This document shows positions 17,687 through 44,312 of a stretch of DNA of 64,000 bases, in pieces; position 1 is the first letter of the stretch; the number at the start of each line of letters is the position of its first letter. The stretch is from Trichoplax sp. H2. Taxonomy: Eukaryota. The DNA lies in contig NOWV01000175.1 in the NCBI GenBank assembly GCA_003344405.1, positions 1-64,000 on the forward strand, written 5' to 3'. A program made the translations under genes and the position numbers. The notes under the pieces were generated by a model, which was not told where the DNA came from, did not search any database, and saw only the letters and a program-made list of their open reading frames with translations.

Positions 17687-18760
17687 TCATCGTTTTACAA
17701 TGGTAATACCCAGGGCTTGTGAGAGAGAAGTCCTTAGCAGCCAAGTGTCAGGTCTAGACTCAGCCAACTCAGTCAAGAGAAAGAAATCCCTCGACACTCG
17801 GTATCCACTATACTATACTGTACAGTGTATAGTATCCGTTCACCATGAGTCAGTAAGTATCCAGTACAGTATACAGCATCAGCTTGGAGAGTGGATTGCA
17901 AAATAATAATAATAACATCATGGAGGAGATTTGTTGCAGGTAGTTCATCAGCGCATGATTTGTGCAGCAGTAGATCGATTTTTGCTAAGACTAAGGACTA
18001 CTAGAAGAATCTATTTCTCGTGGTCCATGGACGTAAGACCTACGTCGAATCTTCAATTGTTAAGTTGCTGAACAACACAGTCTACGATGCATATTGTACG
18101 CTCCAAAGTATTGGCATAATCGATGAGTTACGGGAGATTGGTAGCACTTGTTCATCTCTATCTTGTGATAGACGTACAAGCGAAAAAAAAAAAGTGCTAC
18201 CTATGCCATATAATGTCTTTACCGTATTAGTACAACAACGAGTATTTCTTGTATAATTTCACCTTATTGCATAAACTTGGATCTTCTAATAATACCATAA
18301 ACTATCTATCTTGAATCGACCATGAACTAACGGATGACTGCATAATCGATCCATTTATTATTCTGTACGAGGTTGACAACTAGTCGTGATACTTGACGTT
18401 GCATACTTGACGTTGTATACTTGACTTTCCACAGCAATTTAAAAATTTTCAGTTCCGTTAGCCTCCAATGTACATTTGGGGAAACCAACACAACTTTTCA
18501 ACGAACTCCCTGCATTATTATAATATATTGTATCTGTTTTCGTGCTATCTTATCATTACAATCATGAGCTAACTTATGGCTGCACTACAGGAAGGATTGC
18601 CGGTGGATAGCGTCATAGATAAATTCATATTATTGACCCATTCCTAGATAAGCAAACCTTCTAAAGGAAACTATGTTACGACAGCATGCAACAGTTACTC
18701 TTTAACAATTCCATCTACGGTTATGCTAATAATATTGAATGATTATTATGATTATTATAA

Positions 18761-24108: not shown

Positions 24109-24791
24109 TTGGCCCGTAGACCAAGAAGCTGTAACAAAGTACAAGTTTAAGGTAAACGTAACCGTGAAAATGGTATTTACATTATTTATGACCGGTCAAA
24201 TACTCCCCATCGGATATATTGTGATTTTACATCAGAGCCTGGCTACGCTTATACTTCAGTGACTTTTTGGCAATTTCGAAATCGCTATTTCAAATCATTT
24301 TATACCCTTGGATATAATATCAACTGTCTAGTTGATGAATGTAATCCCAATTGGATAAGCTATCGAATGTCTTATTATCATATGCGACTATTGAGTCAAC
24401 AGCAGGAAATAATCCATTGGAGAATGATTTATAATTTGGATAAAATGAATATGACGGTAGACTATTACGATTATCCTCGATCTCGATTCTCTCTATTTAA
24501 TTTCTTACGGGAACGAAGTATTAGCATTGCATGTAAACGGGTCGACTATGCCAACATTCACGAATCTGGTTGCTCTAAGTGCAGTATGGCATTTGCACAA
24601 AATAATGGTTACAATCTTGTGGCCGAACCATACGTCCGTTTAAAATGTGGGGTAAGATGCAAAGACTCAACTGCAGGTTCCCCGGCTATAGAGAAGACAG
24701 TTTTGGGCACTATTATATTATTAATCCATCATTTTGGTGCGTCCATAGCCCGACATCTACTACAAGTATTTGGTTTGGTGGGCAAGTTTGA
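24109..24791 (+). pseudogene. Disrupted paralogue of the secreted fibrinogen-C-like Cys-rich protein
   Basis: After the acceptor ttttgacag| it reads LARRPRSCNKVQV*(TAA 24148-24150)GKRNRENGIYIIYD..IYCDFTSEPGYAYT..NWISYRMS..ACKRVDYANIH..C..C. A frameshift near 24650-24685 is then needed to reach EDSFGHY..NPSFWC..TSTTSIWFGGQV*, which matches the C-terminus of the 44.9-45.8 kb gene. Confidence 0.8.
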
Positions 24792-26228
24792 GTCTAATAT
24801 GTAAACTATTTAATTTTTGATATCAGGCAGAAAAATACTTCTTGAATAATCTAAGCTAATAAAAGATAGCATAATATATACTTACTACAGCACCAGGCAT
24901 TATTATTATTCACTCTTCACATTAGATTTAGTGTTGGTATACAAGTAGGAAATACAACGCTTTCTTAATTGATAATGCACTATGTGTTAACCACCGCTAA
25001 GGAATTTCATTTTCCACCTTTTTTATGTTGAAATAGCCATCATAAATTTTTGCTGATATCGTTTGGGTCTATGATTCGAAATTGTAGATCCGTTGTCTTA
25101 ATAAATGAGAATTTATAGGAATTCTATTGGCCCTATCTATGTGATAGAAGCTTAGTTATACTGAGTTAAATTACTCGAGTTAATAGTCTGAACGCTAAGC
25201 TAACCCTAAAAGCTTTTGTTATGATCTTAAATACTTGTAATCTACTACATCCCAAGTAAATAAGGAAATTGGACGGAGTTAAGATTGTCGTCAGTTGTTA
25301 GCCTTTAACTAGAGCTCCGCCTTTATCGTTGTGATAGATCCAAAATTGCAGCGAAGAAAATAAATTTAATACATAAATTATAATACTTTTCCAACGACAA
25401 GCTTAATGTCAGATCTATCCTCTCGACATCTACTTGCAAGGCCAACCTGATCACTGACGGTTTCTCCATCATCAGGATTTTGCAGTGACTACAAGTCTCT
25501 CTTAGACAAAAATTGACCCAAATTTTATTGAAAAATTAATAAAGTTTCAGTAAATTTATGCAACTTCAATTATAGAAATGGAAAATTTAACCGTTAGATT
25601 GCTATAATATCCCACCTACGAGCAGCGCGGGTCGTATTTATACTACTGATAGATGACTTTGATTATCGGTTCATTTCAATAAGTCAGGATAAGATTCTTA
25701 CAGTACTTTTTACCTCAAGATTTCTTCATGTAAAACGAATAGCTCTAAAGTAGTCATTTCTGCAGAGTATTGATTATTAAAATAGTATTCGTTATAGCGC
25801 TAAGGGTGGCCACTGGGCCTTTCAATTTTGATTTGATGTAATATTCTGATGAAAATTGAATAAACATAGAATTTTTATAGAGTTTTCTACACAGCCATTT
25901 TGATTTTTATATTTTCTTATAATGGTTGTTATCGACAAAGCAAGCTTTGCTTGCATACGCAAGCGATCCTTAGACACATTATAATGATTGGTCTAGAATT
26001 GACCACAGTACTAAGGACATTGTACAGCACAGTATATATCTTACAGTACCTGCTAATCTTAACTTGGTATGTCCATCACCGTCCATTAGTTATCATAATG
26101 TGCTTTGGATGATTAACTAATCTTAATATAGCATTTCATCCGTCAATGCATTATTGAAAAGTAATATTCTACAAGCATAGCTATGAATATAGTAGTGCCT
26201 GGCTATTACTGGGATATAAATAATGTCG

Positions 26229-26310
26229 AATGGTAATACTATCTGTTAATTATGAACAAATAAGTACATTATCGTAAACTGTCAGCAAAGCGACGTGAGT
26301 TTGTACTAGT
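26229..26310 (+). mobile_element. Helitron-like 3' terminus (copy 1)
   Basis: About 80 bp shared with 44313-44386. Similarity stops at CTAG-T(A), preceded by a degenerate hairpin (actgtc-a-gcaaagc-gacgt). Confidence 0.55.
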
Positions 26311-27113
26311 AGCATCCAATCGCTAGAAATCCTATTTAGGCAAATATTAATTCTTGGTAAGTGTAAAGCGTAGACTTTTTGAGGCAAATGCAATCAATTA
26401 ATACTACATCATCCAAGGCATATCTTTTTTTTCTAAAATAATAGCTTGATATCTTCAAATGCACGATTTCAAAACAAATTTGTACTACTGTTAACTTCGA
26501 GATTAATTTTATCACAGGTCGGCACAGATCATGATATGCAACACGGGATATAAGACACCTTTACCTCGACAAGAGAGCATTTTTATCTTCGAAATTCAAC
26601 CATAAAATTTGGAGTATATGATGAGCTTTCTACCTTGCTGTATCTATACCAGAGGACCTTCAACGTACCACATGTAAAAAATTGTATCCAAAGCTATCAG
26701 CTAAGGATTCTTCACGAACTAATACCTACATCCACCAACTTTTGCTATGAAGCTACTTAGTATTACAAGTAGACTTACATATCGCATAAGTTCATTTTAT
26801 GAAGTTACTTAAATATAACAATTTCAACTTATTTATAATCCATACATTCACTTGATTCTGGGGATGGCATAAATCGAATAGACTATTAATAATTATTTTA
26901 TATACGGTACTGTAAATCAAAGTATAGAATTTATTTGAAAACTTGCTATGCAAGTACCATAGCGAAAGATCATAAGAGTTTGAAAATTATTGCCTTTATT
27001 GTAAAATTTTACTTGAACACATTCTCTTTATCCAGAAGAATTACTTAAGCAAGACTACTATCTAAAAATTGTACAAAGTGGAATTATAATGGGATAATGA
27101 TAGAATATACCTG

Positions 27114-28439
27114 TTATTGAGTAAAATATGCCGGAACGATATCAAATATCAGTTTATACAAGTTTTTACTGAACAACATACAGTTTTCGGATCTAAGCAA
27201 CTGATGTAATTTTATTCCTATATTGATTTCTTTCTTCTTGTGAACTTCTCTAAATTTTCCTGTCTCGCATTCAAGATCGTGATATTCGAGAATGTCAACG
27301 ACGTTAATTATTGCTGCCTCTCGTAAATCACTCCATAACTCTTCATGGCTGGCAATTCTGTAGCTGTTAATTCGCTTATGTCTGACGCTACTAATCAGGC
27401 TAACATAGCTTTTTTCCGCGATTACAGCACCGGTCACATTATCTCGTCTAATAAAAGGACCTTTATCCAACAAGGAATCTTGAAACTTTGAATTACCTTC
27501 TATTTTCTGCATATCGCCGCTACATAAACTAATCCTAACGTCACCCAATCCAGATTCATTTTTATAATCAATTTTAGCAAACAATGTATCCTCTTTATTT
27601 GTCATCAGTTGCATGTCAGTATCATAATCGGCATAACGATGAATATTAAAATCAGTAGGTTTAAATGTAATTCTAAAAACTTCTTTCTTACTTAGAAATG
27701 GTAAGGATAAATTATGGAAAGTATCCTTTTGATTATAATTAAGTTTGCAACAGACTGGATAGAATGAAGTTTTGATGGTACTATATTTCTTTGAAGGTGT
27801 CGTTGTAGGCTAAAATCCGTTAACAAAAGTTTTAAACTTATGGATGGGCATTCTCTTTTGACGCAAATCTAAACCGGTTACTAAAATATAACCGTATCGG
27901 ATAGTTGCAAATAAGTTTTCCATAGCTACAGAATCAATCTGCTTATTCATAACATCATTTATCCAGTGCTGCAATATAAGTGTTAAATCGTTAATGTCAA
28001 CTTGGCTAGTATCCACAGTGTGTTTTAGATAAGGTGTATAAAATTGCTTATGGGTATCACACTCATAACGATGGATGAAATTGTTGTCTTCCTTAATTTG
28101 CACCAATTGGTCGTCATCAATTGAACCTCTTATTAATAAGAACTTCCAAATTTGTAAATGATTAACTTGATCACCGTCTTTCGGTAAAGGCTGATGTTTG
28201 TTGTTGCTTTTTACATTCAGAGCTTCAAGATCACTAGTTCGCTTATTAAGTCTACTTTGGTAATTATCAACATAATTTGTTCTATAGCTATTCCAATTGT
28301 AGGCATGAGGATGAGAAGAACTTTTGTCATGTTTAGCCCTCCAACTTAATTGCTTTTCTGCACAATTTAAACTTTTCTTTCCAACTGAGTCTAAACCTAT
28401 TTTCTTCAAATTGTTATCATCAACATCTTTAGACGCCAT
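27114..28439 (-). pseudogene. Cluster member 1 (CYTH/Cet1-like repeat family): single reading frame interrupted by one in-frame TAG at 27812-27810
   Basis: ORFs 27810-28505 and 27114-27614 are in the same frame. The 65 codons between them are open and homologous (PTTTPSKKYSTIKTSFYPV..KEVFRITF..YADYD). The likely start is MASKD at 28439, as in the MASS/MASK starts of the paralogues. Confidence 0.8.
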
Positions 28440-29774
28440 TTTCTTTACGTGAGTTTTAACTATCAAGACTTCTTGAACCAATAACAATCCAGTACGTAGA
28501 AGCATATCGTTCCAAGGGATATTTAGAAAGCTTTTTGTTATTGTTTCTGGCCAGTGCTAACACAATAAGTTGCTGCAGTCGAATAAAATCTTGTATCAAG
28601 AGTGCAAACATCCTTATTAACTACTATTGTCACATTATTATAATCGTTAGACCGCTTTTGTCTAAATTAAGAAAAAAAATTCTCACTTGTGTTCTCATCT
28701 GTTCTCCTGATTATAGCATGTCAATTTTGCTATATTAGCTCAACTTGTGAACTTTTACGTATACCATCATTCAATGAATTCATAGCTAGGATACATCTAA
28801 TTATATAAGCCAAGAAATGGTTACTTAGTCTTACTACGATAATATATGGATTTATAATACATACAGTAAGTACCGCTACGATCGGAATCTACTGTAAAAA
28901 AAGCACTATAGCAATTTCACAGCAACACTCGCTCTTTTCACGAATTACCCATAGTAACAATAGGGAAGATAATTTTGCATTGCGATAATTAAGCCAACTG
29001 AAGCAAATTTCGAATATTTTATATTGCTGTCTTAAAACAAATATAATTATTTGGATTCAAAAAACGTAAAAGTGTCCAGAGAGTTCCATCTTAAAACTGG
29101 GTTTATTTTCTCAAGAAAATTCCCATGATATAGAATATAGCCTGCTTGTAAACAAATTTTTACTCATTATACAAACATTAATTTAGGCTTGGTCAAATTG
29201 ATAAACATATCATCGTAAGCTCTTATATAATTATAATTTCGTATTCTTCTTGTCTAAATCAACTAATCATGCCTGTGCTATCGAACATATGTTTCCATCT
29301 ATCGCAACAAAACAACTAATAACAGTTCATAGTAAACTTTATATCGTTAATTAAACAACATTAGTCATACATATCCTCTCTAAACACATCCAGATCTAAC
29401 TAGCGTACAATAATCAAGAAAGGTAGTGTTTACCATAAGTTATCTTATAAAATACGACTATTGTTATGCTATGTTTTTTGGCTTTCCAAAGAAAAATACA
29501 ATAGAGTGCTTAGTTCTTATTATGACTCCTTTTAACATTTCATTCTAGCATTATCAGGCTGCGTTAAACTAGTAACGATTTTAGTTCATCTAAACTAGCA
29601 CAAAATTTCCAACCCATGATAACGGCAGTATTCATAATAATACGTAAAACTTGCGATATTCTATAATCATGGTATCAATACGTGGAATAAATACTTATTT
29701 GAAGTACATCAGCTAGTTTTCAATATTTCTATGAGCTCCACTAAATGTAGTACATAGCTAAACAGCTTTATATT

Positions 29775-30165
29775 GAGTTATTAGCCGACTCATACCGTAC
29801 TAAGAGCTTATTATTTACTTTTTAATTAGCACACTCATCATAAGCGCATTAGTAATTTCATATCTTAATCATTTTGCAAATGACTTTACGTTTATTAAAA
29901 GCGTTACAAAATAGTAGCGAGGTATACAGCAAATAAAAGATCGATCTACACAATCTACTTTACTGTATCTGCTATTAAAAGATCTATGCAGTAGCAAAGG
30001 GTAGCTTACGCCAATTGCTCGCAGCGAACAACTGGTGGCTCACGCATAGTAGTAAATTGGAAGTGATTGTTGTATAATTATAATTATAATTAACAGTTTC
30101 CTTATACAATTTCAAAAGTTCCCATATATTCTGATTTTACTAAAGATAATCTTAGGTGCAGAATG
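29775..30165. repeat. Duplicate of 33088-33480 (downstream flank of the 465-aa gene)
   Basis: Collinear similarity: gagttattagcc..actaagagctta..cactcatcataagcgc..tttgcaaatga..atacagcaaata..acaactggt..ccttatacaatt..ggtgcagaa. Confidence 0.8.
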
Positions 30166-30721
30166 ATTTCAAAACGATTTAACGTGCCAATAAATTGTAC
30201 TATACTAAAAGTATCTAAAGGATTATATCGCCATTTACAGAACATTACCCTTGGGTATTAGCGGAACTTTTATAATCTATTCTGTTTCAAATTTTTAGAT
30301 TATTAAAGCTGTTTAAACTTATCTTCATCAAATATACAGTAAACACAATATTCAGCAGTATATACTGCTCGTATTAAAGAATAATCTTATATTTCTTTCC
30401 AAATATTGAATAGCATATCGCATTAGCTATCTCGAAATAAATAGATCTGTCATCGATGAAGCTCTTTATCTATAACTACTTCTAAGCTATGAAGAAAATG
30501 ATTTTAAATAGATTTTAACAATACTTTCTCCGTTACAAATAGCTTAATTCACATTCGAAGCCTACCTAAGCTCGCTAATAGAGCCAGCTCAGTATCGGAT
30601 TGATTGTTTTCATATATCCTTGAGGAAGAAAAGAATTAAAGAATTAAAGCGAAGAATACATACGACAAATAAAATGGGATCTCGATTTATAGAAATTTAT
30701 CCCATTTTATTTTCCTATTTA

Positions 30722-30885
30722 TCCTATTTAGGCAAATACTAATTATTGGTTATAATTTAAGTGTAAAGCGTAGACTTTTTGAGGTAAATGTAATCAATCA
30801 GTACTACATCATCCAAGGCATATCTCCATTTTTTCTAAAATAATAGCCTGATATCTTCAAATTCAGGATTTCAACACAAATTCGA
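30722..30885. repeat. Duplicate of 26330-26480 (also related to 32153-32280)
   Basis: tcctatttaggcaaata..aagtgtaaagcgtagactttttgagg..tactacatcatccaaggcatatct..ctaaaataatagc.tgatatcttcaaat is shared. Confidence 0.85.
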
Positions 30886-31400
30886 ATACAGTTGTAATAA
30901 AATTCAAATGCAAAGAAGACGTTAGTGTGGATAGCAATAGCTTAATTACAATATATTGAAAGTTTAATGTTAAACGGAGGATAAAAGTAACTATTAACAG
31001 GAAGACTTCACTTCATATACAACGGGCAAACATCATTTGCCATCTTATAAGGTATAATAGCTTCCTAAGTAATTCAGTCGGAGCTTCTACTAATACCAAA
31101 GTTTCTCATATTATAATTATCGTCTATCTTTCCAAATGCGGCATAGATAACAACTGACTACATTATTCATATAATTTTAGTCGATAACACTATTATCCTT
31201 CGTTATATAATAGAAGTAAAGCTTACAGTAGTTCTTAGCATTCTTAGATACAGAAACAATATGGGAAACTCCATAGTGATTCTTTCAACTTGCTGTTGTG
31301 CATTCACATTGTAAGATAAAGGAACAGCATAAGAAATGGTACTGTACTTGCGCCTCTACATACTTCTACGATTTTACTGTCTATTACTGATCATCTATTA

Positions 31401-32027
31401 ATGGCTAGCTTGATTGGAGATGAGAGAACAGGTTCGATTTTGCCAATTCCAAGAATGAATTTATCATCATCGGGTTTTGATGTGCCTGTTCGACTAATTA
31501 GGCATCAATTTCCCGTTCGGCTAGCATTTACATCGACTATTAATAAAAGTCAAGAGGAAATATTTCATCGACGCGATGTAATGTTAAGCGGAGATTTATT
31601 TACACATGGACAGCTATATGTTGCAATAAAGAGAGTCGGGAATCCAAGAGATTTACTAATATACACAAGTCAGGCAGAACAGTTTATAAATCGAGATAGG
31701 CAAACAATTTACGATTCCTCAAGCGATTGTTTTTGAGCACGTAATGCCGTCTATCAAGAAGTTCAATGAAGTTCTGAAATTTGTGTAATTGAATGTAATA
31801 AAAATGCAATTGTACAATTATTAGGCATTATATTTGCATGATAATTTGTTATCTTTTTTGTCTATTACAGTACAGTATTAAATTAGTGCAAACGGCAACC
31901 CGGGGTAAAATTTAGTCACGATTAGAAATAGCATACTGAGATTATTCAATTATTAGAGTAATGTTTAAATAATAGTTAACGTGTTAACAGTACAACCGGG
32001 AGCAAGGTGGGGGGGGGATGAGCTAGT
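31401..32027 (+). mobile_element. Decayed Helitron: C-terminal Pif1-family helicase fragment (31401-31769) and putative 3' end CTAG at 32023-32026
   Basis: IPRMNL..RHQFPVRLAFTSTINKSQ..LFTHGQLYVAIKRV matches the Helitron RepHel consensus RQFP.RLAFAMTINKSQG..FSHGQLYVA.SRV, but key residues are altered. A frameshifted ARNAVYQEVQ* matches the typical T.N.VY.EV tail. A GC-rich stretch followed by CTAGT lies downstream. Confidence 0.85.
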
Positions 32028-32149
32028 AATCATAATAGATAATTTATTGCTACTAATATAGGATCTCCTATATCAACGTCAACAGCTATTTAAGTTAGTT
32101 AATCTCGCTAACCTTACAACTGTTAACCTCGAAGTTAATTTCATCACAT

Positions 32150-33087
32150 TCCAGCATAGACTTTTTCGAGGCAAATGCAATCAATCAATGCTATACCATC
32201 TAAAGCAGATATCCTTTTTTTTAAAGTAATGGCTTGATATTTTCAAATACATGATTTATTCACAAATTCAGCATACTGTATAATTAACTTCAAAGTCAAT
32301 TTTTTCCCTTGCCGAAATAGATTCTGATATTCAATACTAGAAATAAGACACCTTTACTTCGACAAGAGTGAATTTTTATCTTCGAAATTCAACCATAAAG
32401 TTAAAGTCTAAGATAAATTGTCTGCCTTGTTGTATCTATATCTAAGGGCCTCAGCGTACTACATGTAAAAACTGTATCCAAAGTTTTCAGCTAAAGATTC
32501 TTCATGAACTTATACCTTCATCTATGAATTTTTATTATAAAGCTACGTAGCATTTCAAGCAGACTTACATATCGCAAAACCACATTTATGAAATTACTTA
32601 GATATAACTTTCATATTATTTATAATCCATACATTCACATGATTCTAAGGATAACCTCAATCGAATAGACAATTGATAATCATTTTTACATACGTTATTG
32701 TCAACTAAATAGCTACCTTCTACATTCTAAAGATAGAATTCATTAGAAAACTTGTAATGCGAGTGCCAAAGTAAATGATCATAAAATTTGTAAATTATTG
32801 TTTTAATTACAAAATTTCGCTTGAGCATATTCTCTTCATCAAGAAGATTTACTTAAGCAAGACTACTATCCAAAACTTGTACAAAGTGGAAACATTACTG
32901 ATAAAATGTTAAGTAAAATATGCTGGAACGATATCAAATATCAGTTTATACAAATTTTTACTAAACAAGAAAGAGTTTTTGTGACTAAGTAATTGATGTA
33001 ATTTTATTCCTATATTGATTTCTTTCTTCTTGTGAACTTCTCTAAATTCGCCAGTCTCATAATCAAGATCGTGATATTCGAGAATGT
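32150..33087. repeat. Segmental duplicate of ~26365-27295
   Basis: Long collinear similarity (e.g. taagacacctttac.tcgacaagag, tgtatccaaag, agacttacatatcgca, ttacttaagcaagactacta) running into the gene 3' end. Confidence 0.85.
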
Positions 33088-33088
33088 T
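32909..33088 (-). pseudogene. Cluster member 2: isolated 3' fragment, close copy of the member 1 C-terminus
   Basis: NILEYHDLDYETGEFREVHKKKEINIGIKLHQLLSHKNSFLFSKNLYKLIFDIVPAYFT* versus DILEYHDLECETGKFREVHKKKEINIGIKLHQLLRSENCMLFSKNLYKLIFDIVPAYFTQ*. Confidence 0.85.
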
Positions 33089-33716
33089 GAGTTATTAGCC
33101 AACACATGCCTTACTAAGAGCTTACTATTTACTCCATAATTAGTGCGCACTCATCATAAGCGCTTTGCTTATATCATATTATCATCACTTTGCAAATGAT
33201 TTTACGTTTATTTAAAGCATTGCAAAATAATAGCAAGGCATACAGCAAATACATTGTCGATTCCTACACAATCTACTCTACCGTATCTACCATTGAAAGT
33301 TCTTGAGCAATAGTAAAGAGCAACTTACGCCTATCTTTCGTGGCTGACAACTGGTAGTTTACGCATGATAGTAAATTCGAACTGATTGCAGTATAATTAT
33401 GATTAACAGTTTCTTTTCTCCTTATACAATTTTGAAATTCCCTTATACTCTTATTTTACAGGAAATAATCTATGGTGCAGAAATAGCGGGAAAATAGAAG
33501 TGTCTCTAATAATTATTTAGTAATGCTTCAGTTGATTGATTGATTATTATAAACTAATTATACACATTTAAAATCGCATCAACTTGATGAATATTATTTA
33601 GATAGCACTCTCTACTTTATTTACTAACTATATTGCAAGACAGAATAACAATCAAAGGCATACAGTAAGTCATCAATTATTAGAAAGCTTTACCTTTATT
33701 TTTAATTTGCATTACG

Positions 33717-35114
33717 TTAATTATCACGCAGGTAAGCCGGTAAAACTGTGGCTCGCAACTCACAGTATTCACGTCTGAATATTGAGCTTAGTTGGATTCC
33801 CAAATTAACTTCTAATTTTTCATGAATTTCGTTAAATTTACCTGTTTTGCGATCTAATTGCAGGTATTCCGCAATTTTCGAAACATTGATGACTGTGGCC
33901 ATTCGCAACTCATCCCATAGCTCCGCATTAGCGGCAAACTTTAAGGTCTTTATTTTCTTATGCCTAACATTGCTTATTCTCTTAGTACAGGCTTTCTCTA
34001 CTATTACAGCACCACTTGTTTCTTCTAGTTTTATAAGTGGAGATTCATCAGTTATAGTATTTAGCCTTTGGGCAAGAAGTGCTTCCGTGCATTCAGAATT
34101 ATTTTTCGCGATCGAAATTCGAACATCATTTCCTCCAGTAGGATCTTTGATATCCAGTTTTAAATAAGCTATGTCTTCCTTGCTACTTATTAGATTCATT
34201 TGGCTATCATAGTCTATATAACTACGAATTTTGCTGTCTTGAGTGACAAACGAGATTCTAAATGTTTCCCATTCTTCATCTAAAACCAAGGATGAGCTTT
34301 TATCTAGGCTGTCATATTTACATGGATACTTATTGTAGATGGGAAAGAAAGCAGTTTTAATACGACATATTCGCTTTCTTTTAGGATTACTACTGTTAGC
34401 TGAAGGTGACATCCAATTCAGATGCTGTTTCAATTGTTGATGTGACATTCGATCAACATATGGTTCTAGATTTGTTATATAGAAACAACCGTAACAAACT
34501 TTGATGAACATTTGGTCCATATCTGAAGGATCGATGCACTCAGTCATAACATTATCAATCCATTGCTGGAATATAGCGGAAAATTCTCGGATTTCTTTCC
34601 TGTCATCATTTTGAAATTGCGAAATATAAGGAGTATAATATATTATTTCATCACCGTCAGTACCATAACAAGCATCTAAATGCTTTCTAAATTCTACTAT
34701 TTGGTCATCTGAGCAGGAACCACGCAATCTAAACAATTTCCACGCTTTTACTTTTTCATTATGTGATCTTCGGTTACTTAAGCATTTGTTGCCACGATTT
34801 TGCCTAGATCCATTATTGAAAGCATTTGAATTGAAATTTTGATTGCGACTAAAGTTTTGTTCGCCACGATGGCTTCGACTTGAAGAATCATTATTTCGGT
34901 AACTACTATGATGATAGTTTTTACTATCTTGTGAATTAAAATTTCGGCTGTAATTAGGTGTTCTCCTGGTGTTGTTAGTTTGTCGTTGATTGCTATGTGG
35001 AGGGGCACTGTTACTAGCAGATTTTGGTAGTTTGATATTCTTTATTCCATCAATGCATTCATCGAAAGATTTTTCGTAACCATTGCCATCATTCTGATGT
35101 GAGCTGGAAGCCAT
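33717..35114 (-). CDS. Cluster member 3: 465-aa protein with N/S/R-rich low-complexity N-terminus and one repeat unit (putative degenerate CYTH/Cet1-like domain)
   Basis: Uninterrupted 465-codon ORF in AT-rich DNA. Shares YTPYI, QQWI, VCYG, KTAFFP, LVLDEEWETFRI, YLKLDIK..DVRISI, NVRHKK, ELW..LR, EY..LD..TGKF and KLEVN with its neighbours. The fold assignment is inference. Confidence 0.85.
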   Translation of the reverse strand: MASSSHQNDGNGYEKSFDECIDGIKNIKLPKSASNSAPPHSNQRQTNNTRRTPNYSRNFNSQDSKNYHHSSYRNNDSSSRSHRGEQNFSRNQNFNSNAFNNGSRQNRGNKCLSNRRSHNEKVKAWKLFRLRGSCSDDQIVEFRKHLDACYGTDGDEIIYYTPYISQFQNDDRKEIREFSAIFQQWIDNVMTECIDPSDMDQMFIKVCYGCFYITNLEPYVDRMSHQQLKQHLNWMSPSANSSNPKRKRICRIKTAFFPIYNKYPCKYDSLDKSSSLVLDEEWETFRISFVTQDSKIRSYIDYDSQMNLISSKEDIAYLKLDIKDPTGGNDVRISIAKNNSECTEALLAQRLNTITDESPLIKLEETSGAVIVEKACTKRISNVRHKKIKTLKFAANAELWDELRMATVINVSKIAEYLQLDRKTGKFNEIHEKLEVNLGIQLSSIFRREYCELRATVLPAYLRDN

Positions 35115-37438
35115 TTCTGGGTGTAAGATAGTTTTTATAGTAGATAGTAGCCAATATGGAAATTCTTTGGCAATTATAGCCTAAGCCTAACCGCGGATTT
35201 ACATATGCCTGTTAGAAAAAATGATGACATTGGTATGATCGATTTTCCGTGATTATAGTCTGTATTTATTCAACACAGCTGGGGTGCACTAATTTATTCA
35301 TTCAACTATTATACATTCTATCCATGAAAGAATTGGTTATTGTTATAATTGATGTAATAATAACGCAGACTAAATTTATTTCCTAGTTACTAGTATGTCA
35401 GCAGCTATACTTCTACAGATTATAATACCAACTAATCAAACTTACTGATGTCTCATGGTTCAATTTCTCAACACGACCAGTAAAGTTTATGAATAGTGTT
35501 TCCTATAGGAAAGTATCATAACACTATATTACTTTTTATCTCTAACTCATATAGAATTGCTCTCATTAATTTATATCCAAACTGACGACGAAATCACATG
35601 AATAGGTTAGACGTAGGCATCCAATCGGAGATGATAAGCTACGCAAAGATTCACGAAATGCAAAATTGATTTAAAATGATTGTGGCCGAAAAATTCTATT
35701 TACTTAATTGATATAAGAAATCATTAAGAATCACAATTAACGCTTTTAGTATAAACATAGCAGTAAATCTTTCTAATAATAAAACAAATATTTTTTCTTC
35801 GTGCATTAACTAAACAGTTGTTACTTAATATGTCCGACAGAATTTCTATCTATAACCACTTATTAAAGCAACACACCCAATATCGCAAAACTACAAATGT
35901 TACCCTCTAGGCTACTACAGAAATACTATATTCTACCGTACTACTATCGGAATATTAGTAAGGATAAAGACCATTGCGTTACAGTCACTTCATAACATAT
36001 GGGTTACAAATCGAAATTTATAACAAGAAAAAGTTAAACTACTACAGAAAACTAGTACTATAAGTCTATTGTCAGATTTGTCTTCCACGACTTCTACCAG
36101 CAGTACAACTCTAAATAATAACAATCTCCTATCGTCATGAGAAATAGTAACTCTATCAGTCTCTTTTAGACAAAATTGAAACCAAACTTTATTGAAAAGT
36201 CAAGCAACAGATAGTAAATCGACGTAAACATTTAATGTTTGTAGATAATATTCTACAGCAATGTAGATATCTATTAAAACGTCATAGATAATTTATTACT
36301 AATACATTCCTAGATAAGTTATCTTATGGAAATTATGTTACGACAGTGATACAAAAGTTACTACTTAACAATAAGAAGGAAACAATATATGTGTTTGCTT
36401 AATCTGCTTTATATCGGAAATTAATGCAAATTATGTTTACTCTTGCATAGTTTCAGTTATGACATCATGCAAATGCGGAAGTAAAATCTTACTACTTATT
36501 GAGAAAGCACGTAGCACCTACGTTGGGTACTACTATCGAAGCATTAACAATCTGTAGTAATTTCAGCTAATTACAGTAATTTTGTGTAGGCAATACAGCG
36601 ATAGTATGTACACAATTATAATTTAATCACATATTTCAAAGCAAAGTCGGTTTTGGATTCTAATTAGTTAAGCTGCCTTCTTAGTTTAAAAATAGTTTCC
36701 GCAAGTAATGACTTTGAACCAATTACTGAGGAAATTGAGTCAAATACTAACAGTATTAGAGTTTATTTGCAATATGTTGAGTGTTTACCACTAGATATTA
36801 AATAGAAGCAAAAATTCCAGTTGTAGTAACTAATAGGCAAGAAAGCAGCCAAGATTAAACTTCAGCATAAACGAAAAATAGATTTGCTCAAAAATAAGAA
36901 TTGAAGTTTATTTCATAAGAATAGAGTTTAAGTACAAACCAGAACGTTAACTGTTAATTTACGATATTTAACTTTACGTACAATGTTCACCGCATGAATT
37001 TGCCATCGTGTTTCAGCTAGCGTTGAGCTATTAAATTATCATTTAAGACAATATCAACTAATACATTTCGTAGCAATTAATTCTGATACGTTTTGTTATT
37101 TCGTATAGAACTGTATTATGCATGATCAGACTTTGTAGATATTTGGGACAAGTTATAATCTATATTTACTCTATATAAAAGTGAGGAATTTGTTGTTGGC
37201 ATCACTTTTTACGTATCATGTTCTAACTTGACTATCTTAGCCTTTCAAGGATTGATAGTAAAGGCTTAAATTGCTTATTTATTTTTCTGTTAAGTAATGG
37301 ATAAATAGCTGTCAGATGAAATTATGATTGGATTATGTAAATACATATACCCGTACCTTTAATTTATGATAACTATAAATTATATGTGATTCATGACAAT
37401 CCATTAAAGGATAGTGTTTCATGGCCTATTATTGACCA

Positions 37439-40400
37439 TTATTGACTACTTAAATATCTCGGTAAAATTATAAACATTAATTTATGTAAATTTTCTGCTA
37501 ATAACCGACAGTTTTCTTGACGTATCATCGAATCCAATTGAAATCTGATGTTGACTTCTACTTTTTCATGCCTTTCATGAAATCGACCACTAGATCGATC
37601 TAACATGAAATATTCTACAACATCAGCAATTCTGACGGTAATTGCTTGTCGTAATTTATCCCACAACGGGACATTATCCGATAACTTGAAATGTCTTGCT
37701 TTTTTGTGTCTAACGTTATATACAAAGTCTGTATATACCTTTCCTACCATGACGTGATCAGTATATCGATCTCTAGTTAAAATGGCAGGCTCATCTGCTT
37801 CCATTTTGAACATCTTTGAGGAAAGTTTCTCATTTTCAAATTCATTATTATGAATAGAAATTCGCACATCTCGTCCTTTACCGGAATTTTTGATATCTAG
37901 TTTTAAATACGTTTTATCTTCGTAATTAGCTATCAATTCCATCTGATCGTTGAAATCGGCGTAATCTAAAATTTTGCTATCACCAGAGTTAAAGGCAATT
38001 CTATATGTTTCACCGACATGATCCAAAACTAACGCTCCACTTTTAGCTATATCATCGTCATAATTTTCGTAGGCAGGGTAAAAGCCCGTTCTTATCGTAC
38101 GATGGAATTCATAGGAATTCTTCTTCTTCCTACGAGGTGGGAGCATAATCTTAAGTAGGTCTTCTTTAAATTCTTCAACTGTCATTCTATACGTGTATGG
38201 CTTTAGTTCGGTTAGGTAAACGTGACCATAGCGAAGTTTCATATAAAATTTGGGTAGTTTTGAAGCAATAGCATAATTTCTCTCCGCTGTACTAATCCAT
38301 TTCTGGAGCTTGTTCGATAACTCGTTAATTTCTTCATAATCAGTATTATAATTATACGTGATATGTGGTGCGTAAAACGGATTACTATTATTCGCTAAAG
38401 CTCTATAATATCTATCCATTCGATAACAGGCATCCTTATCATATTTATGAAATTCTACCATTTGATAGTCCATGTAAGAATGACGCAATAAAAGGAACTT
38501 AATCTTTGTATTATTACGTCTGCGATTAGAAGGGCCTCTATTCCCGAAAAGTTTTCGAAATTTGTTCTTGAAGACACTTCGATAATACTGATTGCTACGT
38601 AGAGTTCGTTTTACCAAATATTCTGGCAATATTGTAAACATTATCTTGTGTAAATTTTGTGCTAACATGTGGCAATCCCCACTTTGCAGGATTGAATTTA
38701 ATGGCATCTTAACGTTCAGTTCTTTACTTGTAAATGATTTCTTAAATCGGCCAGTACTTTTATCTAATTGAGAATAGTTTGTAGTATCTGTAACCTGTAT
38801 AATAATTAGCTGTCTTAGATCCTCTGATAAATCTACTTGTGCTGAGAACTTGAAATATTTTGTTCGGTTGCGCCTAACATTTCGAATATACTCCGTATAT
38901 GCCTTTCCCACAATGATGTCGTCAGTAGTTTTATCTCGTGTTATGATTGGACACTTATCTATAGCTATATCTTGCCATTTAGATGGAATATCTTGTGTAT
39001 TCTGATAGTCATTTCCAATGAAAGAAATTCGAAAATCTTTTCCATAGCCAGAATTTTTAACATCAAGCTTTAAGTATGTTCTATCTTCGTTATAAGATAT
39101 TAACTCTATCTCGTCGTTAGCGAATTTACAATCGGCATAAGCACAAATTCTATAGTCATCGATATCGAAGGCAATTCTGAATATTTCCTCTTCATGATCC
39201 AAAACCAATGATGGCTTCTCTTGCAAATCAGCGTAGTCGAGTAGATCTTTATGACAGTTAGAAGTAAAACCGGTTAAGATGCGATTATCAGGATTTACTT
39301 GACGACTGTTTAGACGTTCTTTAAATTGAGTAATTGGCATTTCTGTAACGAACGGTTGTAGTTTTGCTAAGTACATACGACCACATCGAATGCTAGCGTT
39401 TAAGTTGTCAAATACTGAAGGATCACTGCATTCTGCCACAACTTTACCTATCCATAGCTGGAACATTGTCGATAATTCCTCGATTTCATCATTGCAAGTA
39501 TCAGGTGTAGGTAAAATCTGAGAATATGGTAAAGGCCTGCTGCTACTATTTAATGGCTTATAATTTATTTTGAAATTGCAGCCAAAACCTTCACGCTCAT
39601 AAAATTTTGCTTTCTGACTATGCCCAGAAGAGTGACGTAGTAATACTAATTTCCATGTTTTGAATTGCTCGTGAGGTAGCCTACCGTTTAATAATTTCAT
39701 TTTCCCATCATCCTGTCGATAACCGTGTTTAGACATTTTAGGGTTCCAATTTCGACTCCATTTCACTATTTGATGGCCATATTGATTTAGCTTTACAAAG
39801 TATTTAGGCAAAGTGATGAAAATTAACTTGTGCAAATTTTCCGCAAATAGCGTCAAGTTTTCAAGCCGTAGTATTGAGTTTAATTTAATTCTAATATTTA
39901 TCTCTGCCTTATCAAGTCGTCGATTAAATCGACCGATCTTTCGATCTAAGTAAGAATATTCGATGATATCTGAAGCTTCAATGACGATATTCTGTCGTAG
40001 AGCTTCCCATATTTCGACATCTTTGGATAATTTAAAAAATTTCGTCTTCTTACAACGAACATGACGAACGTCGCCATATTCTTTTGCTACAACGATATCA
40101 TCAGTATCTCTATTATATTGTAGAATAGGAGTAGATTTTTTTATCGTAGTATTTTTTCTATACCCTGCGACAGTTTCCGTCCCATTTTGACAATTATTAC
40201 CAGTAATGGAAATCTGGACATCGGGAGAACATGGAGAATTTCGGATGTCAAATTGTAAATAAGTCATGCTATTATCTTTACGTATCAATTCCATTCGATT
40301 ATTATAGTCAGCCTGCTGGTATATTTTGTTTTTATCATAACCTGAAACGACTGTAAATGTTTGTTCTTCGTTATCCAAAATTAATGGTGGATTTCTTTCT

Positions 40401-41311
40401 AATTGATCGTACTTAGGCAAATAATTATCATTAATAGGAGAAAAGCCAGTTGAGATGCAAATTCTCCGTTTCATTAAAGGATTATTGCCGTGAGCTGATG
40501 GCGAAATCTGATTGAGATGTTTCTTAAAATCCGGAGCTGGCATTTGATCGACAAACGGTCTTGGAACATTTACATAGACCAAACCATATCGAATATTGGC
40601 GTTTAAATGATTAAATGTGGAATCAGTAATCTTCCCCTTGATTTCAGTTAGCGATGACTGGAGCATTACTGATAAATCATTTATTTCATCTTGATTACTA
40701 GGACAGATAGGAGAAAGATGTGGAATATAAAATGGTTCGCTACCACCTGATGATTTACTGATGGTATCCATACCATAACCAGAATCATTGTAAGTTCGAA
40801 GTTCTACCGTCTGCTTATCCCCATATGAATGGCGCAAAAAAAATAATGATTTGGGAGACTGGATTTCATCTCGAGATCGACCAACTTTTGTGTTGTAATT
40901 TTGTCTGGAATCATTATTAGAAGAATCGGAATTAAAACTTGGATTCCGATGAAAAGTCCGACCGCCACTTTTTTTCCAGCTTGATCGATCGTTACTCGGA
41001 GCACGATCTCGCTGTTCATGATAAGTCGAACTTGTTTTCAAATTTGTATTCCCATCAAGTAGCGGATTTCTACGTTGTCTCCAGTTCGAAGAATCGGACC
41101 GACTGGGGTTGGCATTATCGTAGAAATTGGTGGTAGCCCCTGGACGCTTACCAGAGCCTCGTTCACTATTTTGCTTGCTTCGTTCATAAGTCGGAGCAAA
41201 GCGATGTCGACTAGTCGGTTGAGAAAATGTTGAATCCGGTTTGTTATTAGCTCTATGATTTAAAGACCTTTCAGAGGAACTTTCCTCCCCGTGAGGTATC
41301 TTGGAGGCCAT
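37439..41311 (-). CDS. Cluster member 4: 1290-aa protein with ~150-aa low-complexity N-terminus and three tandem repeat units (~40850-39795, ~39655-38615, ~38505-37442)
   Basis: Uninterrupted 1290-codon ORF. LRHS, IRYG/IRCG/LRYG, TGF, L(I/V)LD, YL(Q/K)(F/L)D(I/V)(R/K)N..D(V/F)(Q/R)IS, VR(C/R/H)(K/N), EY..LD..GRF and NLHK..F..LP.Y each occur three times. Confidence 0.9.
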   Translation of the reverse strand: MASKIPHGEESSSERSLNHRANNKPDSTFSQPTSRHRFAPTYERSKQNSERGSGKRPGATTNFYDNANPSRSDSSNWRQRRNPLLDGNTNLKTSSTYHEQRDRAPSNDRSSWKKSGGRTFHRNPSFNSDSSNNDSRQNYNTKVGRSRDEIQSPKSLFFLRHSYGDKQTVELRTYNDSGYGMDTISKSSGGSEPFYIPHLSPICPSNQDEINDLSVMLQSSLTEIKGKITDSTFNHLNANIRYGLVYVNVPRPFVDQMPAPDFKKHLNQISPSAHGNNPLMKRRICISTGFSPINDNYLPKYDQLERNPPLILDNEEQTFTVVSGYDKNKIYQQADYNNRMELIRKDNSMTYLQFDIRNSPCSPDVQISITGNNCQNGTETVAGYRKNTTIKKSTPILQYNRDTDDIVVAKEYGDVRHVRCKKTKFFKLSKDVEIWEALRQNIVIEASDIIEYSYLDRKIGRFNRRLDKAEINIRIKLNSILRLENLTLFAENLHKLIFITLPKYFVKLNQYGHQIVKWSRNWNPKMSKHGYRQDDGKMKLLNGRLPHEQFKTWKLVLLRHSSGHSQKAKFYEREGFGCNFKINYKPLNSSSRPLPYSQILPTPDTCNDEIEELSTMFQLWIGKVVAECSDPSVFDNLNASIRCGRMYLAKLQPFVTEMPITQFKERLNSRQVNPDNRILTGFTSNCHKDLLDYADLQEKPSLVLDHEEEIFRIAFDIDDYRICAYADCKFANDEIELISYNEDRTYLKLDVKNSGYGKDFRISFIGNDYQNTQDIPSKWQDIAIDKCPIITRDKTTDDIIVGKAYTEYIRNVRRNRTKYFKFSAQVDLSEDLRQLIIIQVTDTTNYSQLDKSTGRFKKSFTSKELNVKMPLNSILQSGDCHMLAQNLHKIMFTILPEYLVKRTLRSNQYYRSVFKNKFRKLFGNRGPSNRRRNNTKIKFLLLRHSYMDYQMVEFHKYDKDACYRMDRYYRALANNSNPFYAPHITYNYNTDYEEINELSNKLQKWISTAERNYAIASKLPKFYMKLRYGHVYLTELKPYTYRMTVEEFKEDLLKIMLPPRRKKKNSYEFHRTIRTGFYPAYENYDDDIAKSGALVLDHVGETYRIAFNSGDSKILDYADFNDQMELIANYEDKTYLKLDIKNSGKGRDVRISIHNNEFENEKLSSKMFKMEADEPAILTRDRYTDHVMVGKVYTDFVYNVRHKKARHFKLSDNVPLWDKLRQAITVRIADVVEYFMLDRSSGRFHERHEKVEVNIRFQLDSMIRQENCRLLAENLHKLMFIILPRYLSSQ

Positions 41312-41401
41312 TTTCTAGGAATAGAATAATCTTTTAATCAAACTGTGATGTTTCAGAAAGTTGAGAGTTCGGCATTAGTCGCAATAAAGTACACGTATGA
41401 G

Positions 41402-41745
41402 TAACGACGTAACCAGTCGAATAACTATAGTAGTATAGAATAACACTACCAGGACTAACGAATGAGATAGATGAAAGAAGATAGCTTTTGTAATGTTAAG
41501 ACACAGCAGGAAGAAATTACTTCTAGGCACGGATGATTCATAATAATATGTTACTTTTATGGAAGGGTAATGCTAACGACATAACTAGTCGAATAACTAT
41601 AGTAGAATAGAATAATACTACCATGACTAACTAATGAGATAGATGAAAGAAGATAGCTTTTGTAATGTTAAGACACAGTAGGAGGAAATTACTTCTAGAT
41701 ACGGATGATTCATAATAATATGTTACTTTTATGGAAGGGTAATGC
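41402..41745. repeat. Tandem direct repeat, 2 x 172 bp, directly upstream of the 1290-aa ORF
   Basis: taacgac.taac.agtcgaataactatagtag...ggaagggtaatgc starts at 41402 and again at 41574, with scattered substitutions. Confidence 0.95.
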
Positions 41746-44312
41746 TACGGCATAATCTAGCTAGAGTCTAAGACATTTCCACCGTGTAAATTGCTAAATA
41801 GAAGTATCGCAATCGAGATTCCAACATAAAAATTAACGAGATTCTTTCCTCTAAAGTAGTCTTAACTATCTAAGAAACTAACTCTAAGTACTCTTTAATC
41901 TACCAAACTTAGATTCGAGTCTCAGAAGATAGAATACTCACGCTAAGAATCAAAACTTTATTCTAAAAGCTATGGATTAAAAATGTCCGATTGAACTCAC
42001 AACTTACAATCTACTGCTAACCACCGATAACCATCCGTTATCAACTAACTTATTAACTCCCTCAATTAAGAACTTTGAGGCTTTTCTATAGCCTCACAAA
42101 CTTTGTCGATGCAATACGATAATAAATTTATAGCCAAATCTGCATGCTAAATATACCAAGAATCACAACACACTTTCTATGACATTTAATATTAGTTAAT
42201 TAATGGCTAGGTGTTAGCGTATGATTCATTACTCAACAAAATTATATCATTGATGACGAAATTATTAATTAATTATCACAATAAGTTAAGCATATTTAGA
42301 GTTATATTACCTTCTAGTGGATATTCCGTTTCTCTAAAAATGGACTATACCGTGTTTAGAAATAAACACTACACAAACGATTGCTGAAGATCCTGCCTAT
42401 TCTGATATTTCAGTGTACAATATTGCTTGTTTTATTCTAGTCCTTGCAAAATTATTTTAGAGCTGCAAAACTGCTGACTCAGCAAAAATTTACTTTCAAT
42501 GTCACGATTCATTCCTTCCGTTCTATTGATATAATTATATTGGGAAAACAATCTTATTAGACTGATGAATAGAATAACTATTGGTAAACTACCCTATCTA
42601 AATAATTTGCTTCCAAGAACAATTTTAAATGTAAAGGAAGCGTTTTCAATCTTACAATCCGCTCATGAGATGGGATGAAAGTCGGAATGACTATCCCAGA
42701 GTAAATACTATGGTTTAACTTTGTACTATGATCTATTCATTATGAAATTGTTCGTAATGAATGGAGTGTAGTATAAGAGTTAGCCGATTGCGGAAGTAAT
42801 ATTGCAGAATCAATAGCTGAACTTTGGACTATGATTTATTTATAATAGAAGTGATCACGGTTAATGGACGATTAGAATTAGCTGATGGGTGTTGTTGCGA
42901 AAGGATATTGGCCAAAATGAAATCGTTGAAGGCTTTGATAAAAGAAGCGCTTAACGACATAAGATCCAGCATACTTGATGCTCCATGTAGACGTGTTATT
43001 AATCCAAACAAAAACTATATTAACATGCACGATATTACATCAAGTCAATGTATATATGTTACATATTCTTCAATGATATTTTACAATTTGTAATACTCTA
43101 CAAAATTTTCATCATCCGACAACAACAATTTAAAATTCTCCGCAAGTATTAATTACGAAAGATTCGGAATAGAACATAGTTTATTACGAGTTTTCGTTAC
43201 TTAATTTCTACAACTACAGATTACAACTTTCATGATTAGGACAATTCTGACTGCATTGATGTGCTTATTATTGCGTTAATACTTAGCCTGTTACGACTTC
43301 AAAAATCATAAACTAGAATTGCAGCATCATATCAACTTGCTTGCAAGGCACGATATACAAATGTATTTCAATAATAAATATAGCTTCCAACGATACTAGA
43401 ATTAGTAGATTCTTTGCCTTAACAGAGCTATACTTTTATTTGTTACTGCTAACTTTAAATAACTCAAAGCTATTAATAACGGCTGGTAGAATAACCTCCA
43501 CATTACAACATTATTTATGCTATCATTGCTTCTACAATACTGTCATGAAAGTAATCTTCGTGACGTATGCTTTATTTCTATATTACGTGTCACAACCCTC
43601 ACTTGTAGCAAAGGAAAGTAAAGAACTCTAGTGTAGTTACTTAAAACTTGGGCTATTTCTCCCAGTACTTTCAGTTTCTATGAGAGAAGTATTTGAGAAC
43701 TCGATTTCTCGGCTGATCTCCACAGACAACTGACTAATTATTACACTATTCTTCACGATATGAGTCTTGCCGTTTCTTGAGCAATTACTAACTTTATTCT
43801 ACAAACACACGCGCTTAAATAGGTTTCTACAGTGAATTCCAATATTAACGAGTAAGAATTCATGCTTTACAAGTTACATTAATTAGTATAATACCATTAC
43901 TAAATATACATGTCGATATTCTCAGACTTAGATAGCTACAAGCTATCAGGTGTTAAGACGCTTAATCTTCGTCCATATACAGCTCAATTTTTAGAGATTA
44001 ACACACCTTATAAACCTACAGTAAATTAACTGCTAACAACTTCTATTTTTATCTCATTTCTACCATCCTATTATCAGCTACAAGTGCATTAAAACATAGC
44101 ACATAACCTTATCTTATCTATTCATAAGCTTTCATTAATTTACAGTTACTTAATTAGTAACGGCGTACCGTGACATACGTTCTATATGTGTTTATATCTC
44201 AGAAATGTTTTTACGGTCTCCTTAATTGTTATTCTAGTGGTTAACAGTTGATATCCTTGATTTAAGATTGTATACGGTATAAAGCTACTGAACCTCTGAC
44301 AGGTCTACGACA

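Follow-up and report, generated by a model that had tools for sequence, protein, structure and literature searches.

Our analyses of a 64,000-nucleotide stretch of the placozoan Trichoplax sp. H2 (positions 1 to 64,000 of contig NOWV01000175.1, hereafter the window) reveal a minus-strand cluster of genes, between 27.1 and 41.3 kb, that belong to a lineage-restricted Trichoplax family built from a unit of about 350 amino acids (aa). The agreement of three units, two structure predictors and two kinds of comparison makes it very probable that this unit belongs among the triphosphate-tunnel (TTM) domains, as a much diverged member of the Cet1-like type. The tunnel has probably lost canonical catalysis, to judge from the models and the residues placed on them. 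That it serves instead to bind phosphate ends, probably those of RNA, follows the analogy with its best structural relatives, and we give this complete chain of reasoning about even chances.

The Trichoplax unit family

Three minus-strand open frames occupy the region: 37439-41314 (1291 codons), 33717-35180 (487 codons) and 27114-28556, the latter with one TAG inside. Stop codons have a frequency of 0.0737 per codon over the six frames of the whole window, at which a 1291-codon open frame would arise with P ~1e-43, so that a chance origin of the longest frame is excluded. Using a recurring W-K-L-x-L-L-R start and P-x-Y-(L/F) end as borders, we delimited five units of 347-366 aa with pairwise identities of 27.9-40.2%, three of them (U2a, U2b and U2c) fused in the longest frame and one (U1 or U3) in each of the others (Table 1). 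Searching the window with these five units by tblastn recovered five full copies, one fragment and no others. This bears out the original prediction, made from the sequence alone, of four loci with five full units and one fragment; the motif order that it described (IRYG, TGF, E.FRI.F, YLKLDIKN..DVRISI, VRHKK.K, D..EY, K.E.N) is visible in the unit alignment. The fragment, just downstream of U1, is 72% identical to the C-terminus of U3, and we consider it a relic because it retains only ~60 residues and a stop, with further stops before them.

Exact look-up matched the encoded proteins to TRIADDRAFT_60636, 60637 and 60638 of T. adhaerens, each named “uncharacterized protein”, and to Trichoplax sp. 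H2 entries, so that the early-branching animal supposed in the original prediction proves to be a placozoan. The window and T. adhaerens versions are identical at 1278 of 1290 positions in the three-unit protein and at 462 of 473 in the single-unit U1 protein, where the C-terminal helix shows a gap of 8 aa. A HMMER search with U1 over 1.84 billion cluster representatives returned eight proteins at E <= 1e-3, namely two window genes, the N-terminal half of U3, the proteins P0005-P0008 and one weak repeat protein, and Trichoplax was the only named source organism among them. P0005-P0008 are four more members, of 399-685 aa, and include one encoded on a different scaffold (P0008, T. adhaerens B3S9C5). 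The 437-aa repeat protein P0010 (E 6e-4, 24% identity) looks spurious. Genuine members have an M-A-S start and a low-complexity tail followed by one domain, or by three in the fused gene. N, S, R, Q and K abound both in their N-terminal tails (46-334 aa) and in the two linkers between units. Aliphatic/aromatic residues (A, V, I, L, M, F, W, C) account for 14-25% of the tails and for 14-28% of tails and linkers taken together, and the net charge is +3 to +19, a composition consistent with disordered, nucleic-acid-friendly segments.

Beyond these members, the family appears isolated in sequence space. A word-index search with U1 returned its own protein alone, the same search with alignment A1 returned 3 proteins, each either encoded in the window or a T. 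adhaerens/H2 orthologue of such a protein, and with the domain-only alignment A2 it returned P0006 alone; searching the ESM Atlas with U1 yielded no usable match. Pfam hmmscan of the window proteins P0001 and P0002 gave nothing relevant, including no PF02940 or PF01928, and neither Pfam nor the sequence and profile searches of the PDB produced a confident match to an unrelated characterized family. The weak Pfam and PDB matches that did emerge (zf-HC2, SPO24, NuMA hook, OpaR 8zf3_A at E 0.022 and GH95 at E 0.34) were taken as chance. The literature searched contained no mention of these locus tags, of a placozoan triphosphate-tunnel fold, of Placozoa together with RNA triphosphatase, or of the plant family DUF7903; supplements of placozoan expression atlases lay outside this search and may list the genes.

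Predicted fold and charged interior

AlphaFold2 models were built from an 11-row alignment for U2c and a 10-row alignment for U1. The U2c model (mean predicted local distance difference test score, pLDDT, 77.0; predicted template modelling score, pTM, 0.79) comprises an N-terminal beta-hairpin (strands 13-18 and 27-32), two helices, a series of antiparallel strands and a closing C-terminal helix, the long strands being 98-113, 148-154, 170-183, 190-196, 202-217, 224-236, 273-286, 301-314 and 319-334. In the U1 model, with a mean pLDDT of 52.9, only residues ~150-325 reach 70-89. It is much poorer than the U2c model; U2c has the full C-terminal helix and U1 lacks 8 residues.

A Foldseek comparison of the U2c model with the PDB gave 19 matches at E <= 1e-3 and, among the matches listed (13 of the 19), all were either RESC1/RESC2, of the Trypanosoma brucei complex that binds the substrates of RNA editing (RESC), or the RNA triphosphatases Cet1/Pct1. 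The best five rows were RESC1/RESC2 chains, and the RESC matches ranged from E 5.2e-11 to 3.6e-8 with template modelling (TM) scores of 0.43-0.56, led by 8fn6_1 (E 5.2e-11; 0.53 by query, TMq, and 0.55 by target, TMt) and including 8cdp_A (E 4.3e-10) and 8cdp_B (E 9.9e-10). Yeast Cet1 (1d8h_A, E 5.2e-7, TMt 0.52), Schizosaccharomyces pombe Pct1 (4pn0_D, E 6.5e-7, TMt 0.58) and Trypanosoma cruzi Cet1 (6l7x, E 7.4e-6) were also recovered, and among the matches weaker than 1e-3 were vaccinia D1, archaeal and bacterial CYTH proteins, a mimivirus triphosphatase, thiamine triphosphatase and Mediator Med18/20. The poorer U1 model had 16 PDB matches at E <= 1e-3 and, among those listed, all were again RESC1/RESC2 or Cet1/Pct1. 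Among the predicted viral structures of BFVD, U2c found 25 matches at E <= 1e-3 (best 2.5e-6), of which 15 bear the name of a giant-virus mRNA 5'-phosphatase or capping enzyme, 1 that of CYTH and 2 that of “DNA ligase”, the other 7 being unnamed. The ESM Atlas holds its own model of the paralogue P0008, which superposes on plant DUF7903 with TM 0.48/0.49 over 280 residues and on a fungal mRNA-capping beta subunit with TM 0.42/0.60; in the language-model comparison, P0008 has 172-183 features in common with clusters of DUF7903 and of PF02940 and scores 0.90 to them. A predicted complex of two U2c copies scored 0.00, with the alignment unused and the partner fold uncertain, and has no bearing on dimerization.

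We read the tunnel interior from the strand borders of the U2c model and from the alternation of polar and hydrophobic residues over nine units (U2c numbering); the identity of strand 1 comes from predicted secondary structure and strand order, not from superposition. This first long strand ends in a near-invariant (I/L)-R-(Y/F/C)-G, with Arg at position 103 in 8/9 units, and its polar positions 99 (Y/F/N/W) and 101 (K/N/S/T) are acidic in none of the nine. In Cet1 and CYTH enzymes, two glutamates on the equivalent strand (motif A, E305 and E307 in Cet1) hold the catalytic metal jointly with one on the last strand (motif C, which includes Cet1 E496). Passages of PMC10201420 give E305, E307 and E496 as the metal ligands of Cet1, any single mutation of which inactivates it, and describe RESC1/2 as lacking two of these three glutamates. 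In CYTH proteins, according to part of the preprint bioRxiv 10.64898/2026.02.04.703868, metal binding similarly depends on the ExExK pair.

Nine to ten conserved Arg/Lys positions lie on polar faces of the predicted tunnel strands (R180 in 6/9 units, K213 and R256 in 7/9, R226, K279 and K326 in 8/9, and K/R217, R277 and K/R285 in 9/9), where the alternation suggests that they would point inwards. All ten conserved basic positions are kept in U2c, U3 and P0007; U2a lacks four of them (T180, Q213, Q226, Y256), and U1 and U2b lack two each. On the polar face of the last long strand, K326 is joined by E328, a Glu invariant in 9/9 units, and by N330 (5/9). In RESC2, K311, R359, R402 and R424 bind 5'-triphosphate RNA and RESC1 is non-binding, as reported in passages of PMC10201420. 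On the U2c model, the canonical strand-1 metal site thus appears to be gone, and the rich charged interior appears to be under selection.

The original prediction had proposed a Cet1/CYTH tunnel fold in which the acids of motif A are replaced and the last motif keeps one Glu. The U2c model and its Foldseek matches argue for that fold, and the U1 and P0008 Atlas models agree; the polar pair before the conserved Arg is indeed devoid of acids, and a single invariant Glu stands on the last strand, flanked by Lys and mostly Asn. Some of the Cet1 motif assignments made at that time, such as that of DVRISI to the R393 strand, may be off by a strand.

Transcripts, variation and neighbouring features

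Eighteen public runs hold U1 wholly or partly. We placed the contigs of four of them, from four studies (X1, X3, X6 and X16), on positions 26000-42500; X16 is on record as RNA, and X1, X3 and X6 are RNA by guess. The genes are transcribed, and their layout consists of a non-coding 5' exon, an intron in the 5' untranslated region (5'UTR) and a single uninterrupted coding exon. The contigs represent spliced transcripts because the genomic window contains the stretches that they skip. In the three-unit gene, the intron reads GTAATATA ... TTCCTAG on the gene strand (contig joint 41314->42311), and the coding exon begins 2-3 nucleotides (nt) before the ATG; in U1, the joint is 35207->35445 (cut +1), and the coding exon begins about 90 nt before the ATG. 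In the RNA-labelled run X16, a contig of 3218 nt lies on the three-unit gene, with shorter ones on U1 and U3. Contig cover is absent from the bins 28755-30407 in all four runs, a weak hint that these are transcriptome runs, which we did not use as evidence.

In the window, an in-frame TAG (27810-27812) breaks the U3 frame, and U3 is also truncated in the T. adhaerens reference protein P0009. At 27811, the middle base of this codon, the contigs of X3 and X6 carry TAG and those of X1 and X16 carry TGG (Trp), so that U3 is intact in some strains or transcripts. A strain allele is a simpler reading of this difference than A-to-I-type RNA editing, because the same X1 contig also carries G>A and A>T differences. 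The H2 annotation (P0014) skips the stop by means of a 72-nt GT..AG “intron”, which we regard as an annotation device and not as real since this stretch is retained in all contigs that span it (X1, X3, X6) and encodes conserved residues. Near 33744-33750, U1 in the window is 24 nt short, which amounts to 8 residues of its C-terminal helix; the T. adhaerens orthologue has this stretch, as do the X1, X3 and X6 contigs.

Table 1. Features of the unit cluster in the window (positions on the forward strand).
Feature	Position	Strand	Remarks
Three-unit gene, upstream non-coding exon	42311..42500	-	X3 contig; region examined ends at 42500
Three-unit gene, 5'UTR intron	41315..42310	-	996 nt; GT..AG on gene strand; contigs of X1, X3, X6 (three studies)
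Three-unit gene, coding exon	37439..41311	-	1290 aa; ATG 41309-41311, TAA 37439-37441; orthologue TRIADDRAFT_60638; basic linkers between units U2a/U2b/U2c
Three-unit gene, N/S/R-rich tail	40850-41311	-	N-terminal
U2a	39785-40849	-	tblastn
U2b	38606-39679	-	tblastn
U2c	37442-38539	-	tblastn
Single-unit gene U1, 5'UTR intron	35209..35445	-	237 nt; GT..AG on gene strand; one X3 contig only
Single-unit gene U1, coding exon	33717..35114	-	465 aa; ATG 35112-35114, TAA 33717-33719; orthologue TRIADDRAFT_60637
U1 domain	33720-34760	-	tblastn
Relic of U3-like copy	32912..33139	-	last ~60-76 codons + stop; tblastn
Single-unit gene U3	27114..28439	-	ATG 28437-28439, final TAA 27114-27116; TRIADDRAFT_60636 / TrispH2_009657
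U3 domain	27117-28166	-	tblastn

The surroundings of the cluster present several other features. The window is AT-rich (GC 0.29-0.39), and no tRNA genes were found in it. The two ends of the region examined (26000-26550 and 41428-42500) accumulate a summed contig depth of 100-555, with many diverged contigs from all four runs, which suggests that the cluster is flanked by copies of a repeat or mobile element that is expressed; one of these high-depth sides overlaps the 5'UTR intron/exon region of the three-unit gene. Further out, two single-exon open reading frames (ORFs) flank the cluster in opposite orientations (24151-24804, plus strand, 217 aa; 44883-45566, minus strand, 227 aa). They encode Cys-rich paralogues with a “Y-x-I-Y-D ... 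C-D-F ... P-G” start (29% identity over 166 aa, E 5e-21), neither of which has a Pfam match. Between U3 and the relic, a stretch with several odd contig joints (30927-32050) includes a 138-codon open frame on the plus strand (31320-31736), which seems to resemble a Pif1/Helitron-type helicase C-terminus; Pfam gave nothing for it at E <= 5. The overlapping frames of 127-215 codons on both strands at 17004-17906, rich in Y, T, V, Q and C, are probably non-coding, and they stay open because of short imperfect GTACAG-type tandem repeats (periods 19-24, TRF scores 59-76). At 14908-15555 on the minus strand, a 215-codon ORF that Pfam does not match encodes a single predicted hydrophobic span (WIIVGIAIAVCSVLVAMIIYI); it may represent one exon of a membrane protein of the single-pass type.

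Possible ligands and known tunnel systems

The function that we propose is that the tunnel would no longer act as a canonical metal-dependent triphosphatase and might instead grip tri- or polyphosphate termini; the likeliest of these, on the model of RESC2, would be the 5'-triphosphate of an RNA that has no cap. The RNA-sensing or RNA-granule role that the original prediction had put forward as speculative gains by analogy, since the best structural match, RESC2, binds 5'-triphosphate RNA although its tunnel is inactive. Basic tails and linkers could add non-specific RNA affinity or multivalency and avidity. In the three-unit protein, the pairing of U2c, with all ten basic positions, and U2a, with four lost, would echo the binding RESC2 and the non-binding RESC1.

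Tandem duplication, triple fusion, a relic copy, a stop that varies between runs, an in-frame deletion and many residue-changing differences point to a cluster in fast turnover, and such turnover would fit, speculatively, a role in defence or RNA surveillance. Carried to its end, this line of thought yields a placozoan lineage-specific, fast-evolving recognizer of uncapped 5'-triphosphate RNA, made of disarmed tunnels (single or three per chain) with cationic, condensate-prone tails and directed against viral, transposon-derived or small-RNA precursors, a joint claim that we consider doubtful. If true, it would imply an animal mode of RNA 5'-end reading that has no relation to RIG-I-like helicases or IFIT proteins and that either converged on, or shares an ancient origin with, the trypanosome guide-RNA clamp RESC2 and plant DUF7903.

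Several observations weigh against a disarmed RNA-binding tunnel. The alignments behind the models are shallow (10-11 rows, about 9 independent units), the TM-scores are moderate (0.42-0.58) with large global root-mean-square deviations (8-15 Å), and the tunnel-lining residues are inferred from strand periodicity. Sequence comparison offers no help: none of the eight domain sequences matched PF02940, PF01928 or PF25475 (hmmscan, E <= 10; whether the Pfam copy used contains the PF25475 model was unchecked), phmmer and hmmsearch against PDB sequences gave no TTM chain, and HHalign gave the placozoan profile a probability of only 0.04 when set against 30 CYTH domains from prokaryotes, which amounts to no sequence-level link to CYTH. 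The ligand could be other than RNA. As to selection, 17 of the 23 nucleotide differences listed inside ORFs between the window and the run contigs change a residue and 6 are silent, but this tally is partial (135 further differences unlisted) and pooled over four runs whose strains are not known, so that it is only a hint at relaxed or diversifying selection. Acids are conserved too: D215, D224, D/E314 and E328 in 9/9 units, D173, E177 and E309 in 8/9 and D195 in 7/9, with a D173-x-E175-x-E177 run on the strand adjoining strand 1, which makes a relocated metal site with residual catalysis possible on the model.

These acids are the best argument that the tunnel remains an active metalloenzyme (phosphohydrolase or cyclase) whose metal ligands have shifted from strand 1 to the strands beside it and whose substrate would be a nucleoside triphosphate, polyphosphate, 5'-triphosphate RNA or a small triphosphate. 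D215, D224, E328, D173, E177 and E309 all stand on polar faces, and we retain this explanation because the D-x-E-x-E run at 173-177, on the strand expected to pair with strand 1, might replace the strand-1 site; moreover, TTM enzymes take varied substrates by a two-metal mechanism, as described in parts of PMC4641920 and PMC8233210. However, the ExExK-type pair needed for metal in both CYTH proteins and Cet1 is missing from strand 1 in all nine units, the best structural relatives, RESC1/2, are inactive, and no sequence profile of an active family matches, so that we hold an active enzyme to be unlikely, if worth serious attention. A pseudoenzyme might also have become a pure protein-protein scaffold with no phosphate ligand, in the manner of Jhc1, which lacks ExExK and acts via protein interaction according to sections of bioRxiv 10.64898/2026.02.04.703868, or of the Med18/Med20 barrels of Mediator, chains of which are among our weaker fold matches (E 8e-3 to 4e-2). 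The RESC/Cet1 matches are nevertheless 4-8 orders of magnitude better than those to Mediator, and nine to ten conserved basic positions together with invariant acids exceed what the upkeep of a fold would require and fit an anionic ligand, all of which renders a scaffold improbable.

That anionic ligand might be inorganic polyphosphate, an inositol pyrophosphate or a free nucleotide, placing the family in signalling by phosphate or nucleotides and not in RNA biology. Enzymes of polyphosphate and triphosphate belong to the TTM superfamily, VTC4, CHAD-CYTH and SPX-domain proteins occur among the weak matches, and a basic tunnel pattern does not tell such ligands apart; yet the strongest structural matches (RESC1/2, Cet1, Pct1, viral capping enzymes) all handle RNA ends and long cationic disordered tails are more typical of nucleic-acid binders, and we consider a non-RNA polyanion quite improbable. 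The least credible alternative in our eyes is that a capping-enzyme gene captured from a virus or mobile element is decaying here, its remnants being transcribed without any host function. Intronless coding exons, the relic copy, the in-frame stop of U3, the deletion in U1, the frequency of residue-changing differences and a fold common to giant-virus triphosphatases would all suit such an origin. Against it, frames of 1291 and 487 codons have stayed open despite 0.074 stops per codon, units only 28-40% identical keep the same invariant charged residues, paralogues of the same architecture exist elsewhere, the 5'UTRs are spliced and the viral matches are weaker than those to RESC/Cet1, so that mere decay seems very improbable.

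Cet1-type tunnel RNA triphosphatases are described, in passages of PMC10201420, as limited to viruses, fungi and protozoa, and the animal tunnel proteins that we found in the literature, through parts of bioRxiv 10.64898/2026.02.04.703868, are only thiamine triphosphatase and its derivative Jhc1. Here, an early-branching animal would possess a whole orphan family with a Cet1/RESC-like predicted fold, its canonical metal site gone and its charged interior conserved. What is new is the family, its lineage and its architecture, the fold and the notion of a “dead tunnel” being already known. The binding of triphosphate ends would provide a set of Trichoplax “hypothetical proteins” with a hypothesis testable at the bench and would constitute a second case, independent in sequence, in which the tunnel of a capping enzyme has probably become a reader domain.

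The comparison with known tunnel systems places the Trichoplax unit at different distances from each. CYTH proteins and thiamine triphosphatase have the same superfamily fold and give weak Foldseek matches (E 3e-3 to 3e-2), but a CYTH domain measures ~180 aa as opposed to the ~350 aa of our unit. The vertebrate ciliary protein Jhc1, derived from thiamine triphosphatase, is an animal tunnel enzyme made a pseudoenzyme by ExExK loss; unlike the Trichoplax unit, it is predicted to be an open sheet acting via protein contacts (both points from sections of bioRxiv 10.64898/2026.02.04.703868). DUF7903 (PF25475), a family of uncharacterized plant proteins of ~400 aa and thus of similar length, is the named ESM Atlas cluster nearest to P0008 in both features and structure, and one neighbouring cluster carries both PF02940 and PF25475. 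Given that hmmscan (E <= 10) linked none of the units to PF25475, we take this relation as a lead only, which hints that non-capping tunnels may be commoner in eukaryotes than sequence searches reveal.

The likeness to Cet1/Pct1 (PF02940; fungi, protozoa and large DNA viruses) lies in the predicted fold (E 5e-7 to 7e-6, TMt 0.52-0.58), in the alternating charged residues of the tunnel strands and possibly in the one invariant Glu on the last strand. By contrast, the Trichoplax units have no strand-1 glutamate pair in any of the nine cases and no PF02940 match, are not linked to a guanylyltransferase and exceed it in length by ~90-100 residues, the U2c model having helices and a hairpin in addition at its N-terminus. 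Their host is, furthermore, an animal, and animals as a group cap mRNA with a cysteine-phosphatase-type enzyme.

The closest parallel is provided by RESC1/RESC2 (also GRBC1/2), the best structural match to U2c, with E 5e-11 to 1e-9 and TM 0.48-0.56. There is no detectable sequence similarity, with no RESC match at E <= 10 by phmmer and hmmsearch against all PDB chain sequences, 8cdp and 8fn6 included, and the two systems belong to an animal and a kinetoplastid, respectively, with no sign of a mitochondrial role in the Trichoplax family. RESC1/RESC2 form a two-gene heterodimer, whereas the Trichoplax units are tandem-fused or single and carry long N/S/R-rich tails; dimerization via a swapped beta-hairpin is a RESC feature, and an N-terminal hairpin is predicted in U2c. 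Nevertheless, the matched RESC chains (~310-430 residues) have a similar domain size and a Cet1-like tunnel that has lost its first-strand metal ligands and kept its Arg/Lys. The two RESC tunnels are cooperating paralogues, of which RESC2 binds the 5'-triphosphate of the guide RNA and RESC1 does not, as passages of PMC10201420 describe, and in the same manner the Trichoplax units of one chain differ in the number of basic positions that they keep.

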